Shown here in pieces: positions 23,246-38,446 of a stretch of 64,000 bases of DNA. Source of the stretch: a virus. Under the pieces are notes generated by a model. It saw only the letters and a program-made list of their open reading frames with translations. It had not been told where the DNA came from and did not search any database. A program made the position numbers and the translations under genes. How positions within the stretch are numbered: the stretch's first letter is position 1; every line of letters begins with the position of its first letter. The stretch lies in the IMG/VR virus record IMGVR_UViG_3300008121_000001, positions 1 to 64,000 of that record. One strand, written 5' to 3'.

Positions 23246-23382
23246 AGGAGAGTGGCGGAATTATTAGACGCTGAAGTGCAGAAATGCCACCAGTAGAGAC
23301 TAGACCTGTAAGCGGATAAAGTGGACGGGTTTTGTTCTGGAAAATTAGTCTCATGCAGGTGAGAATCCTGCCTCTCCTTTCA
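23246..23382 (+). ncRNA. tRNA-like RNA with no canonical anticodon arm
   Basis: Acceptor AGGAGAG/CTCTCCT, Leu-type D arm, T arm GCAGG-TGAGAAT-CCTGC; about 80 nt of branched sequence between D and T arms. Confidence 0.65.
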
Positions 23383-23386
23383 ATTT

Positions 23387-23507
23387 GGTTAAGTGGCGGA
23401 ACTGGTAGACGCTATACACTGAGATGAGCGTAGAAGTATGTTGACAACACATCAACTCTTAAATGAGGAGGCGCTCACACTTGCAGGTTCAAATCTTGCC
23501 TTAACTA
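23387..23507 (+). ncRNA. tRNA-like RNA with no canonical anticodon arm
   Basis: Acceptor GGTTAAG/CTTAACT, D arm GCGGAACTGGTAGACGC, T arm GCAGG-TTCAAAT-CTTGC; middle region is a TGAGCG/CGCTCA-closed branch. Confidence 0.7.
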
Positions 23508-26195: not shown

Positions 26196-26417
26196 ATGGC
26201 AGCAGCTAAAACCAAGTCCGACAACACCGACGTAGTAATTTCCAGTGCAGCAGCAGCACTCGTTAAGGCAACAGCAAACATTCAAGAAGCATTTAAGTCT
26301 GTCGATAGTCTCACAGAAACCGCAGAAACTCTCACTCGCGACATCGCTGGCAAGAAAGCTGAAATCGAAAGCTTGGCTGAAACTTATCAAACGTTACTTA
26401 GTCATGTTAGTATATAA
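26196..26417 (+). CDS. Short coiled-coil protein, possibly truncated
   Basis: Own promoter (26127-26160); heptad pattern ends abruptly at the tmRNA promoter. Confidence 0.5.
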   Translation: MAAAKTKSDNTDVVISSAAAALVKATANIQEAFKSVDSLTETAETLTRDIAGKKAEIESLAETYQTLLSHVSI

Positions 26418-26419
26418 AT

Positions 26420-26700
26420 GTCGTTGAGATTGCTAGATAGCTTGTGCATACGTTGGTTCGACCCCAACCCCGTCCACTTGTCTCAGTGGTGTAACGGTAG
26501 CATAGGAGTCTCCAAAACTCTTGGAAATAGTTCAAATCTATTCTGATTCGCCAAGGGCGGGATAAATGGATTCGCTGTGGAAGTGATTTCTAGCAACGCG
26601 CTGAAGTTTTATGAATGAAAGCTAGATGACACAAAAAGTAAATGCGAAAAACAACATTTGCCAATTCTCTAGAAAAGCTGCCCTCGTAGCCGCCTAGACT
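26420..26700 (+). ncRNA. ssrA: Permuted two-piece tmRNA: acceptor piece 26420-26477, coding piece 26555-26700
   Basis: Acceptor GGGCGGG/CCCGTCC-A with G3.U70; T arm GTTGG-TTCGACC-CCAAC; GGATTCG 5' motif; TTGCTAGA/TCTAGCAA inter-piece helix; tag ORF 26644-26697 AKNNICQFSRKAALVAA*. Confidence 0.88.
26480..26553 (+). tRNA. tRNA-Trp(CCA) inside the tmRNA intervening segment; imperfect acceptor stem
   Basis: Anticodon arm GGAGT-CTCCAAA-ACTCT; T arm AATAG-TTCAAAT-CTATT; encoded G-CCA end. Confidence 0.8.
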
Positions 26701-26704
26701 ACCC

Positions 26705-26741
26705 GAAGACCTCGTATACTTAACGGTTGCGGGGTCTTCTT
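26705..26741 (+). terminator. Hairpin terminator after tmRNA
   Basis: GAAGACCTCGTA.../...TGCGGGGTCTTC followed by TT. Confidence 0.6.
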
Positions 26742-27102
26742 ATATCTAAACAAAATAACGTGAAAAGAACAACTTGCGGTTTCCGTTTCCAAGGTCACTA
26801 CGTCTACCGCCAAATTTTCGATGACGGTATATACAAAATCATGGTGTGGGTCGCCTCTAGTCCTCCAGAAGAAGAATTGTGCGCTGATGTTGCATTTTGT
26901 GGTGATTCCCATATAGAATGTATGGGCAAATTGAAAAAATGGCTTGAAATCAACAAAGATTGGGTAAACAAAACAGATGGCAACACTTAAAAATCTCGTG
27001 ATATTCTCGGAAATCCTCGATACTAATACCTCTATTGATAGATGACCTTCCCCAACCACCGCGTTATTATACATAAGCACTCAAGCAAAACACCAAAAAC
27101 AC

Positions 27103-35887: not shown

Positions 35888-38446
35888 GTGACAGATAGAA
35901 TTTTAACTTTAGATATAGAGGGTAACGGGCTTTTCAAAGACTTAGTAGACTTTAGTTCATTCCCTTATAAGTTATTACCCTCAGCTAGGCTCTGGTGCGT
36001 AGTCATTCGGGATGTAAATACTGGTGAGCATTGGAGTCGTGAGAAGGAAGGCATCACAAGAGAGTGGTTACAAAAAACTTTGAAGGGTTGCACGATACTT
36101 GTAACTCACAACGGATTAAAGTTCGACTTATTAATGCTCTGGCTATTCGGCTTGCTCGATTACAGGGTAGGTTATTTAAACGAAGTAGATACGATTTTCG
36201 GTGAGCCAGTTCAGATTGTAGATACCTTACTTCTATCTCGCTTACTATCCCCCGACCGCTACGATAATGGTGGAGGACACTCTTTAGAAACATGGGGTAA
36301 AAGAGTAGGAGATTTTAAGGATGATTATCGCCAGAAGTGCATAGAAGCAGGTTATATTGAGGCGAATGCACCTAAAGGAGCTGAGTTCTTAGAATGGAAC
36401 CCTCTTATGTGTCCTTATTGCTTGCAGGATAATGTTGTAACTGCAAAAACTTTTTTAGTTCTTTGGGAACAGTTTAAACAATACAAAGGATGGGCGCAAG
36501 CGTTCAAAGCAGAGACTAAAATTGCAGACAAAGCTATTCGTCGCGAGAATCTGGGCTTTTGGTTTGACCGTGAACTTGCTTTGGAAAATATTGCTTGGCT
36601 TGAAATTGAGATGAAGCGAATCTCAGATGCAATCAATCCAATTCTTCCTCCTAAGCCTTGCAACAAAACCGAGCTTGACCGCTTCACCCCCCCTAAAACG
36701 CAACTAAAGACACACAAAGCCGTCTACCTACCCAAGAAGCAGGTCAACAAGGATGGAACACTCTCAGCCACGTTAATCAAATGGTTCAATCAACATCCTG
36801 AAGTTATCCACGAAGAGCAGAGTGATTTTTTCTGGTTTGAGGAAACTCGTTATCAATTACCTTATGAAGAAGCCCTTGTACCTGAGTGGACAGAGCCTAG
36901 CGAAAATATTTTAAAGTTTGCTGAGCAAGTTGGTGGTCGAGTCGAAAACATTGATGGTGTGTGGACTTTCTTTTACAAAGATAGATTCTATGACTTACCT
37001 TTCGATGAACCTCTTGAAACTGAAATCGCAGCAACGCTGGATAATATTGACCACGTTAAGCACTATCTAATTTCTTTGGGTTGGGAGCCAATTGAGTTCA
37101 AGCAACGCGACCTAACTAAAGACTCCAAGAAGCAATCTATTTCTTATGAAAAGAGAGTTGTTGCTACAGAGAAATATATAGAAGAAACTCTCGGAGGTAA
37201 ATACAAAGCTGAGCGCCTAGAAATCCTTGAAGTAACTGAAGAGCAGCTTAGGGATAACTTAATGTCCAGAATTGGTAAAAACAGACCTGTATATGTGCCA
37301 ACTGCTCCCTGTGTTCGCGTAGGTGTAACTAAAGTTTTCTGCCCTTCTTTAGAGAGGTTGGGAGATAAGGTTGCTTTTGCTAAAGACTTCGCTCTGTACC
37401 TTACTTACAAGCACCGTAAGAACAGCTTGGCAGGTGGAGTGGACGAGGATTTTGACTATGAGGAAGATAATCCTCCTACAGGATTTCTAGCGCAATACCG
37501 TGAAGTTGACGGAAGAATACCTACTCCTAGTGTGGAGGTAGCTACAAATACCCATAGAATGAAGCATATTGGAGTTGCCAATATCCCTAAAGCCGATTCA
37601 ATCTTCGGCAAGGAAATGCGTTCATTATTTTGTTCAGGTAAAAATGGGTATTTTTTCGGTTATGACCACTCAAGTTTGGAGTCAAGAACTGCATCTTCGT
37701 ATATTTTTAAGTATGATGGTGGTCAAGAGTTGGCAGTCGATATGATTGCGGAAAAACCTAACTCTATTCATTGCAAAAATGCAATTAGACTAAATATTTC
37801 CAGAAATGATGCTAAGGCATTTAGCTTCGGTATTATGTTTGGAGCGCAAGCTAGAAAACTTGCAAAAATGTTAGGTATTACTGTAAAACGGGCAGAGGAG
37901 ATGTTAAAAGACTATTGGGATAACATGAAAGCTCTTGCCCAATTCAAGGAAGCTATTGAAAAGTTCTGGATTAAAAATGGTAAGACTTATATACCTGCAT
38001 TAGATGGTAGGAAAGTGGCTATTAGAAGCCAGCACTCTATTGTTAATGCTGCGATTCAATCTGCGGGTGCTTTGTGTTCCAAGTACACTTCACTATTCTT
38101 GATGCAGATATTAGAAGAGAAGGGATTATGCACCGACCCATTTTTAGGTGAGCCTGACTGTTCTCAGATGATTATCTACCACGATGAAGAAGCCTTGTAC
38201 GTCAATAAAAAGCTTTTCGAGATTAAAAAGTTTCCAGACGAAGATTCGGCAAAGCAATTTGTTTCTGATTGGAAAGGTGGACAATTGAGTGCTGTCTCCC
38301 ACATTAATAATTGGTATGTTGTGATGCCTAATGTCGTATCCGAGTCTATAATAGAATCATTGAGAAAAACAGAAGAAATTTTGAAACTTCGTGTACCTTT
38401 AGCTATAGAATGGAAACTTGGACGTAATTGGTACGAGTGTCATTAA
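35888..38446 (+). CDS. polA: Family A DNA polymerase with 3'-5' exonuclease
   Basis: Exo DIE, HNG..FD, YC.QD; pol motifs A (D.SSLE.R), B (R..AK...FG..FG), C (HDE). Confidence 0.9.
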   Translation: MTDRILTLDIEGNGLFKDLVDFSSFPYKLLPSARLWCVVIRDVNTGEHWSREKEGITREWLQKTLKGCTILVTHNGLKFDLLMLWLFGLLDYRVGYLNEVDTIFGEPVQIVDTLLLSRLLSPDRYDNGGGHSLETWGKRVGDFKDDYRQKCIEAGYIEANAPKGAEFLEWNPLMCPYCLQDNVVTAKTFLVLWEQFKQYKGWAQAFKAETKIADKAIRRENLGFWFDRELALENIAWLEIEMKRISDAINPILPPKPCNKTELDRFTPPKTQLKTHKAVYLPKKQVNKDGTLSATLIKWFNQHPEVIHEEQSDFFWFEETRYQLPYEEALVPEWTEPSENILKFAEQVGGRVENIDGVWTFFYKDRFYDLPFDEPLETEIAATLDNIDHVKHYLISLGWEPIEFKQRDLTKDSKKQSISYEKRVVATEKYIEETLGGKYKAERLEILEVTEEQLRDNLMSRIGKNRPVYVPTAPCVRVGVTKVFCPSLERLGDKVAFAKDFALYLTYKHRKNSLAGGVDEDFDYEEDNPPTGFLAQYREVDGRIPTPSVEVATNTHRMKHIGVANIPKADSIFGKEMRSLFCSGKNGYFFGYDHSSLESRTASSYIFKYDGGQELAVDMIAEKPNSIHCKNAIRLNISRNDAKAFSFGIMFGAQARKLAKMLGITVKRAEEMLKDYWDNMKALAQFKEAIEKFWIKNGKTYIPALDGRKVAIRSQHSIVNAAIQSAGALCSKYTSLFLMQILEEKGLCTDPFLGEPDCSQMIIYHDEEALYVNKKLFEIKKFPDEDSAKQFVSDWKGGQLSAVSHINNWYVVMPNVVSESIIESLRKTEEILKLRVPLAIEWKLGRNWYECH

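Follow-up and report, generated by a model that had tools for sequence, protein, structure and literature searches.

Two-piece transfer-messenger RNAs (tmRNAs) are encoded by permuted genes in which the acceptor piece precedes the coding piece, and their transfer RNA (tRNA)-like domain is assembled from two RNAs. They are found in Caulobacter and other Alphaproteobacteria, some Betaproteobacteria and marine picocyanobacteria (Rfam families RF04321 and RF01849-51). Phage-encoded representatives are established as well: 53 have been predicted in a phage database, with S-CRM01 and Melnitz among the examples (PMC9004378). In all these systems the tag is a proteolysis tag, and the intervening segment is short, removed by tRNA-processing enzymes and discarded. 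The closest described arrangement comes from GCA-2688965__sp002688965.2, where the intervening sequence of a permuted tmRNA contains an intact tRNA-Ala, a case called unique among 97,179 sequences (PMC11915505). Here we describe a locus in a 64,000-nucleotide (nt) stretch of viral DNA (the window; positions 1 to 64,000 of IMG/VR virus record IMGVR_UViG_3300008121_000001), which comprises the first 64 kb of a 93-kb record estimated to be 64% complete. Read from the sequence, positions 26419-26740 of the plus strand contain a permuted tmRNA gene with the order acceptor piece, CTT, tRNA-Trp, A and coding piece. We regard it as probable that this is a working two-piece tmRNA gene, belonging to a family of freshwater Pseudanabaena-type cyanophages, and that its spacer has been filled by the tRNA-Trp as optional cargo. 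Removal of the spacer by tRNA-processing enzymes and the use of a proteolysis tag are proposed here as in the known two-piece tmRNAs; unlike theirs, the intervening segment would be a second gene product.

The locus resembles the tRNA-Ala case in having a complete, high-scoring tRNA gene between the acceptor and coding pieces of a permuted tmRNA. Compared by the published single-sentence description of that case, the two differ in that the former comes from a nominally archaeal metagenome-assembled genome and carries tRNA-Ala, whereas the present one belongs to a freshwater cyanophage, carries tRNA-Trp and has relatives with an empty slot. Neither these phages nor the tRNA-Ala case appears in the text supplements of PMC11915505, and literature searches returned no further description of a tRNA in a tmRNA intervening sequence. 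An earlier note on this DNA had considered the design foreign to any described tmRNA, a claim contradicted by the tRNA-Ala precedent and by six IMG/VR contigs with a nested tRNA-Asn, which are presented below. The idea of a nested tRNA is thus not wholly unpublished, and the window adds an independent case that involves another phage lineage and another tRNA. The elements of the locus are as follows.

26411-26418, plus strand: -10-like box TATATA/TATAAA, a few bases 5' of the acceptor piece (sequence).
26419-26476, plus strand: acceptor piece, pairing with the coding piece via its 5' strand, which includes TTGCTAGA (RF04321 alignment, cofolding).
26430-37, plus strand: P2 strand TTGCTAGA, pairing with TCTAGCAA at 26589-96.
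26452-26468, plus strand: canonical T arm GTTGG-TTCGACC-CCAAC (sequence, RF04321 alignment).
26469-26475, plus strand: acceptor 3' strand CCCGTCC (sequence).
26476, plus strand: discriminator A73 of the tmRNA; CCA is not encoded after the acceptor piece.
26477-26479, plus strand: 3-nt linker CTT between A73 of the tmRNA and G1 of the tRNA-Trp, with U at tRNA position -1.
26480-26553, plus strand: tRNA-Trp with anticodon CCA, G73 and encoded CCA, ending in GCCA (ARAGORN; Rfam RF00005).
26554, plus strand: single A linking the tRNA CCA to G1 of the coding piece; it occupies position -1 at the RNase P site of the tmRNA.
26555-26740, plus strand: coding piece (RF04321 alignment; tag from ARAGORN -ps).
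26555-26561, plus strand: acceptor 5' strand GGGCGGG, the start of the coding piece.
After 26561 in the coding piece, plus strand: D-loop analogue with GGATTCG, reading AAATGGATTCG (sequence).
26589-26596, plus strand: P2 strand TCTAGCAA, the partner of TTGCTAGA.
In the coding piece, plus strand: conserved hairpin AGTTTT/AAAGCT, with a U.G change in PA-SR01.
26644, plus strand: resume codon GCG in the context TAAAT-GCG, which fits UAAAU-GCN (sequence).
From 26644, plus strand: tag AKNNICQFSRKAALVAA of 17 codons with a hydrophobic end, stop codon TAG at 26695-97 (sequence; ARAGORN -ps).
26705-26739, plus strand: terminal hairpin of 10 base pairs (bp) (sequence).

The strands GGGCGGG and CCCGTCC pair at 7/7 positions, including G3.U70, the alanine identity pair, at the third, and are accompanied by A73. 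The T arm and the D-loop analogue AAUGGAUUCG agree with the RF04321 consensus, and an anticodon arm is absent. Cofolded, the acceptor piece (CCA added) and the coding piece adopt a minimum free energy structure with the T arm, a 7-bp acceptor stem formed between the two molecules and a long P2 helix. Besides the conserved hairpins upstream of the resume codon, there is a helix that closes onto the acceptor piece at its 5' end. RF04321 (tmRNA_permuted), the merged Rfam 15 model for permuted tmRNAs with 213 positions and a gathering score of 47 bits, aligns over all positions 1-213 to 26422-26697; the tRNA falls into the loop closing the acceptor stem and is handled as an insertion (41.2 bits; E = 7e-7 over the 601 nt scanned and 2.8e-8 over the whole virus record). 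Such a match exceeds chance. The check with ARAGORN in permuted-tmRNA mode that had been proposed for the locus also came out in its favour: with -ps and thresholds lowered to 95%, the program places a permuted tmRNA at 26387-26788 and reads precisely the tag AKNNICQFSRKAALVAA from it. The tRNA called by the finder (26480-26553) lies wholly between A73 (26476) and G1 (26555) of the tmRNA on the same strand. The anatomy proposed in the earlier note, a permuted two-piece tmRNA enclosing a whole tRNA-Trp, with an intact G3.U70 pair, pieces joined by TTGCTAGA/TCTAGCAA, a TAAAT-GCG resume context and the tag AKNNICQFSRKAALVAA, was recovered element by element.

Five further members of the family were found: the Pseudanabaena phages PA-SR01 (MT234670) and Pam2 (ON014754), and three IMG/VR members, designated G001 (Pam2-like), G002 and G003. 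Identity to the coding piece of the window reaches 89% in PA-SR01 and 75% in Pam2, the conserved part being the 3' two-thirds. MAFFT misaligned the 5' halves of the six whole precursors, and the helices were compared by coordinates instead. The six members display five distinct acceptor stems (GGGCGGG/CCCGTCC, GGGGCAA/TTGCTCC, GGGGGAT/ATCCTCC, GGGCATA/TATGTCC and GGGCTAT/ATAGTCC), and compensatory changes keep the 7 bp, G3.U70 and A73 in all five stems (6/6 members). P2 covaries likewise, from TTGCTAGA/TCTAGCAA in the window to TCTAGCGA with a G.U pair in Pam2 and GGTCTAG/CTAGACC in PA-SR01. The same 19-residue tag is encoded in Pam2 and G003 with three synonymous and no non-synonymous changes between them, and between the tags of the window and PA-SR01 there are three synonymous changes and a single Leu/Pro replacement. 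Because the acceptor stems and P2 covary and the changes in the tag are mostly synonymous, a functional tmRNA family is very likely. The tags presumably resemble those of cyanobacteria, a likeness that we take as a lead only.

The relatives share with the window the logic of P2 pairing and the type of tag, and all except G002 share the terminal hairpin. They differ from it in the lineage-specific sequence of the T arm and acceptor stem, and in spacers of 5-26 nt without a tRNA:

PA-SR01 spacer: TTTCAC, no tRNA.
Pam2 spacer: ATCTA, preceded by an encoded CCA, no tRNA.
G001 spacer: ATCTA, preceded by an encoded CCA, no tRNA.
G003 spacer: TTATCAA, no tRNA.
G002 spacer: 26 nt, no tRNA.

A homologue of the tRNA-Trp was absent from the whole records of PA-SR01, Pam2, G001 and G002 in a DNA search of these four. 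Without the tRNA, the spacer of the window amounts to CTT+A, about as long as the spacers of the relatives, and the A at position -1 before the coding piece recurs in Pam2, G001, G002 and G003. As judged from these comparisons, the nested tRNA is optional cargo rather than required punctuation, and implies no new maturation principle.

The core of the tRNA-like domain, made up of T arm, acceptor stem and D-loop analogue (26440-26580 in the window), differs from lineage to lineage, and the tag region and 3' hairpin are 75-89% identical; the T loop of Pam2 and G001 is non-canonical (AGCATTA/AGCATAA). Such divergence of the core next to a conserved tag region points to an exchange of cassettes or to compensatory evolution at a very fast rate. 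Exact-pattern scans of viral and metagenome contigs found no match to the conserved 3' hairpin; G001 has the motif, so near relatives are masked and the miss does not show absence. Genome and metagenome contigs likewise gave no exact match to the hairpin-region motif, viral contigs none to the T arm/acceptor sequence of the window or to the 3' half of its tRNA, and genome contigs none to the 3' end of the array-type tRNA-Trp; these misses do not show absence either.

Three RNA libraries (two studies) yielded contigs of 241, 189 and 200 nt that match 26469-26709, 26495-26683 and 26525-26724 over their whole length at 100% identity; the coding regions that flank the locus within the 601-nt stretch have no match. 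These libraries consist of assembled contigs without read starts or ends, and the missing cover 5' of 26469 proves nothing. The contigs offer a moderate indication that transcription of the locus well exceeds that of its neighbours.

Expression and maturation would most likely proceed as follows. A single transcript would run from the -10-like box (~26411) to the hairpin at 26705-39. The two tmRNA halves pair into an alanine-type tRNA-like domain, as structure and covariation show, and the spacer would fold separately as a cloverleaf projecting from the acceptor-stem end. Host RNase P would cut before G26480, the tRNA 5' end, and before G26555, where the 5' end of the coding piece would then be mature. 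The acceptor piece would be left with A73 and CUU, the latter trimmed or cut by RNase Z, and would receive CCA from the host CCA-adding enzyme; the tRNA already has its CCA and would need one A trimmed. The junctions being only 3 nt and 1 nt long, three RNAs near their mature ends would thus result from two cuts of the RNase P type. The presence of an encoded CCA in the tRNA and not in the acceptor piece fits a division in which the next RNase P cut sets one 3' end and a CCA-less pathway the other. Cyanobacterial RNase P and RNase Z process CCA-less precursors. The model has a parallel in tight phage tRNA arrays (e.g. L026 and L027), where CCA-ending tRNAs are spaced 1-6 nt apart: there too, the RNase P cut at the next 5' end nearly makes the preceding 3' end. 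Unlike the tRNAs of these arrays, the window tRNA is flanked on both sides by halves of the tmRNA tRNA-like domain and is enclosed by the acceptor stem of that domain. The tmRNA would be used by host alanyl-tRNA synthetase and SmpB to tag stalled proteins with AKNNICQFSRKAALVAA; the tRNA-Trp would be produced in step with it, and host tryptophanyl-tRNA synthetase and proteases would also be used. SmpB is not encoded in the 93-kb phage record, so that SmpB, both synthetases and the proteases would have to come from the host.

Several observations weigh against this interpretation. The RF04321 score falls below the gathering score, and default ARAGORN misses the tmRNA and calls the tRNA alone. 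Upstream of the resume codon, folding and helix comparison identified conserved hairpins but not the canonical pseudoknot PK1. The promoter consists of the -10-like box alone, where a generic sigma-70 scan made no call. Two of the RNA-library contigs (X15 and X17) span the junction of the tRNA and the coding piece with at least 31 bases on each side, so at least some of the molecules are uncut precursor, or DNA; contig X16 has only about 30 bases on the tRNA side of this junction. Contigs cannot show ends, and the cleavage into three RNAs is what we infer from the sequence. Finally, the acceptor stem of the tRNA-Trp contains two adjacent mismatches, U2.U71 and C3.U70, and its cloverleaf (-9.6 kcal/mol) is not the minimum-energy fold (alternative -12.2 kcal/mol; z = -0.18); that the cloverleaf is missed when the tRNA is folded alone is uninformative for an AT-rich tRNA. 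The tRNA-Trp may be a poor decoder, or may have lost decoding.

These features of the tRNA raise the alternative of a tRNA-like module in decay or without a decoding role, which processing enzymes still recognise but which is neither charged with tryptophan nor used in translation. Besides the mismatches and the folding energy, this would be in line with tryptophan having one codon, so that codon bias gives no reason for carrying the gene. We consider it unlikely, because the anticodon loop CUCCAAA, G73, the encoded CCA and the D and T arms are intact, and the identical sequence occurs in an independent sample. The RF00005 score of 47.2 bits exceeds the cut-off of 29 and lies just under the 48-71 bits of tRNAs in two other phage contigs, and ARAGORN also calls a tRNA-Trp.

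The nested tRNA might otherwise be obligatory punctuation, a processing signal that frees both ends and without which the tmRNA would stay immature. The very tight junctions agree with such a role, as does the tRNA's own CCA, which is expected if the downstream RNase P cut sets its 3' end. The role is nevertheless improbable: the five relatives mature, if at all, with plain spacers, the residual CTT+A is similar to these in length, and in known two-piece tmRNAs the tRNA-like domain itself is the usual RNase P substrate (PMC11915505). Of the earlier inference that excision of the tRNA would release both tmRNA ends, the compatibility with the 3- and 1-nt junctions stands, and the necessity does not, given five relatives without a tRNA. 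The further suggestion that the nesting records the origin of the permutation is at odds with the same relatives. Permuted genes are thought to arise by duplication-and-loss (model cited in PMC3978253); as five relatives of the same family have plain spacers, the tRNA does not look like a relic of the permutation event or a remnant of the duplication and loss behind permuted genes.

It is more doubtful still that insertion of the tRNA inactivated the tmRNA gene and left a pseudogene. The sub-threshold results with Rfam and default ARAGORN would be expected of a pseudogene, but relatives free of the insertion score just as low with RF04321 (G003 43.8, PA-SR01 31.9, G001 21.5 and Pam2 17 bits), so the low score reflects divergence of the family. 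Default ARAGORN still made no tmRNA call when the tRNA was deleted in silico or the spacer was cut to 4-64 nt, and its miss is therefore due to the same divergence and not to spacer length. G002 reaches 51.6 bits with RF04321, above the cut-off, and default ARAGORN calls the permuted tmRNAs of G002 and G003. Acceptor pairing, G3.U70, the T loop, the resume context, the open tag with its hydrophobic end and the terminal hairpin are all intact in the window, the gene is covered by RNA-library contigs, and nesting is also kept in six marine phage contigs. For annotation, the consequence is that default ARAGORN and the Rfam cut-off both overlook the tmRNA of the window, and the tmRNAs of PA-SR01 and Pam2 are missing from the annotation of their GenBank records.

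An assembly chimera joining the tRNA to the tmRNA, conceivable for a metagenome-derived virus record, has a negligible probability: a 1169-nt DNA contig (X13), which comes from another study than the likely source, is identical to the window over 26358-26900 (0 differences), so the nested arrangement is not a chimera, and at least 93% of the sampled words are present in each of 14 DNA runs from six studies of lake/freshwater metagenomes.

As a tmRNA gene with cargo, the locus is not alone among phages. A gapped-pattern search of IMG/VR for permuted tmRNAs with cargo returned eight contigs. In six of the eight (L031, L032, L033, L035, L036 and L037, from four metagenomes), ARAGORN calls a permuted tmRNA enclosing a tRNA-Asn(GTT), which is separated by 4 nt from each of the two pieces. 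The remaining two (L030:1712-1846 and L034:2517-2651) contain a marine phage permuted tmRNA with the tag GATIYDEMINGLQVATSERVSGLVMA and a 99-nt insert that ARAGORN does not call as a tRNA. The marine tRNA-Asn contigs have the same topology as the window and similarly tight junctions (4 + 4 nt against 3 + 1 nt). They differ in having tmRNAs of the picocyanobacterial type with longer tags, such as AKDIDTAANNIVAFSRVLTREFSRTSELATA, and in the identity of the tRNA; their tmRNAs sit inside tRNA arrays, whereas the tRNA cluster of the window phage, with four further tRNAs (Ile, Asp, Glu and Lys), lies ~60 kb from the tmRNA in the same record. Since the tmRNA subfamily, tRNA identity, habitat and genomic setting all differ, the nesting in the window is best seen as an acquisition independent of the marine cases. 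Its tRNA-Trp has 48/74 positions in common with the tRNA-Trp genes that two other freshwater phage contigs carry in their tRNA arrays, and capture of an array-type phage tRNA into a short ancestral spacer appears to be the most economical origin.

When the isolate phages S-CRM01, S-CAM1, S-CAM3 and AG-345-P14 were checked for cargo, all proved to have short tmRNA spacers. In T4-like cyanophages the permuted tmRNA directly follows a tRNA gene, tRNA-Leu in S-CRM01 (L028:765-1119) and tRNA-Thr in L033, L035, L036 and L037, so that the tmRNA is part of a tRNA array; the ARAGORN tmRNA coordinates overlap the upstream tRNA in those arrays.

Nested tRNAs thus recur in phage tmRNA genes, yet are barely documented. 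The spacers of two-piece tmRNAs are usually regarded as discarded; here and in the checked marine contigs they give a second RNA, predicted to be functional, per precursor, which makes these phage tmRNA genes compact two-product units. We tentatively extend this to a broader proposal, which may or may not hold: the spacer of phage two-piece tmRNAs could be a general expression slot, filled independently by unrelated lineages (tRNA-Trp here, tRNA-Asn in the marine phages), from which RNase P excision would yield the cargo one-for-one with the tmRNA and so tie tRNA supply to ribosome rescue during infection. Under the same proposal, the tRNA-like domain of the family would also be a hot spot for other insertions that are processed, with PA-SR01 apparently the first permuted tmRNA with a group I-like intron. 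The occurrence of the same tmRNA with an empty slot, a tRNA-filled slot and an intron-like insertion constitutes a natural experiment on the tolerance of RNase P and 3' processing at the tRNA-like domain of a tmRNA.

The T loop of PA-SR01 is interrupted by a 227-nt insertion (L001:1213-1439, equal to MT234670 116499-116725, minus strand of the record). Its GTCGAA pairs with TTCGAT of the exon, the 5' junction having a U.G pair; the last base of the insertion is G, and removal of the insertion restores GAGGG-TTCGATT-CCCTC. The insertion looks like a group I intron, in which case the permuted tmRNA would also be one with an intron, a combination that is not among the tmRNA forms listed in PMC11915505. 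The group I intron model RF00028 gave no match at E<=10 over the stretch with the insertion, and BLAST found no second copy of it among isolate phages. Pam2 encodes a tRNA-like gene (L002:680-850) whose acceptor stem, GGGCGAG/CTCGCCC, is perfect; it has a T arm and a D arm of the Leu type, and ~95 nt replace the anticodon and variable region. The gene is not called by ARAGORN, and resembles the 'tRNA mimics' at 23246-23507 of the window.

The -10-like box at 26411-26418 is the probable start of the tmRNA transcription unit, and a TATAAT-like box occurs at an equal distance in 5/5 relatives. The motif GATAGA-N22-TATAAT/TATTAT, a candidate phage promoter from the first reading of the window, stands directly 5' of the acceptor piece in PA-SR01 (L001:1105-1160) and G003 (L020:75-135), a placement that supports it as a real promoter type; the GATAGA part is absent before the window's own tmRNA. 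The independent contig X13 matches the window over 26358-26900 and is unrelated 5' of 26358, which places a mosaic joint ~60 nt before the tmRNA gene and suggests a recombination joint. The joint lies inside a predicted 73-codon open reading frame (26196-26417) without a Pfam match. The family A DNA polymerase of the window (35888-38446) is 72% identical to that of G003. Used as a marker, it retrieves only G003 from IMG/VR and only distant phages among the isolates (<=45% identity to any isolate phage in the collection), with the best isolate matches in Acinetobacter and Cellulophaga phages and neither PA-SR01 nor Pam2 among the best 30 listed. The relatives of the replication module thus seem to differ from those of the tmRNA/recombination module, which indicates a mosaic genome.

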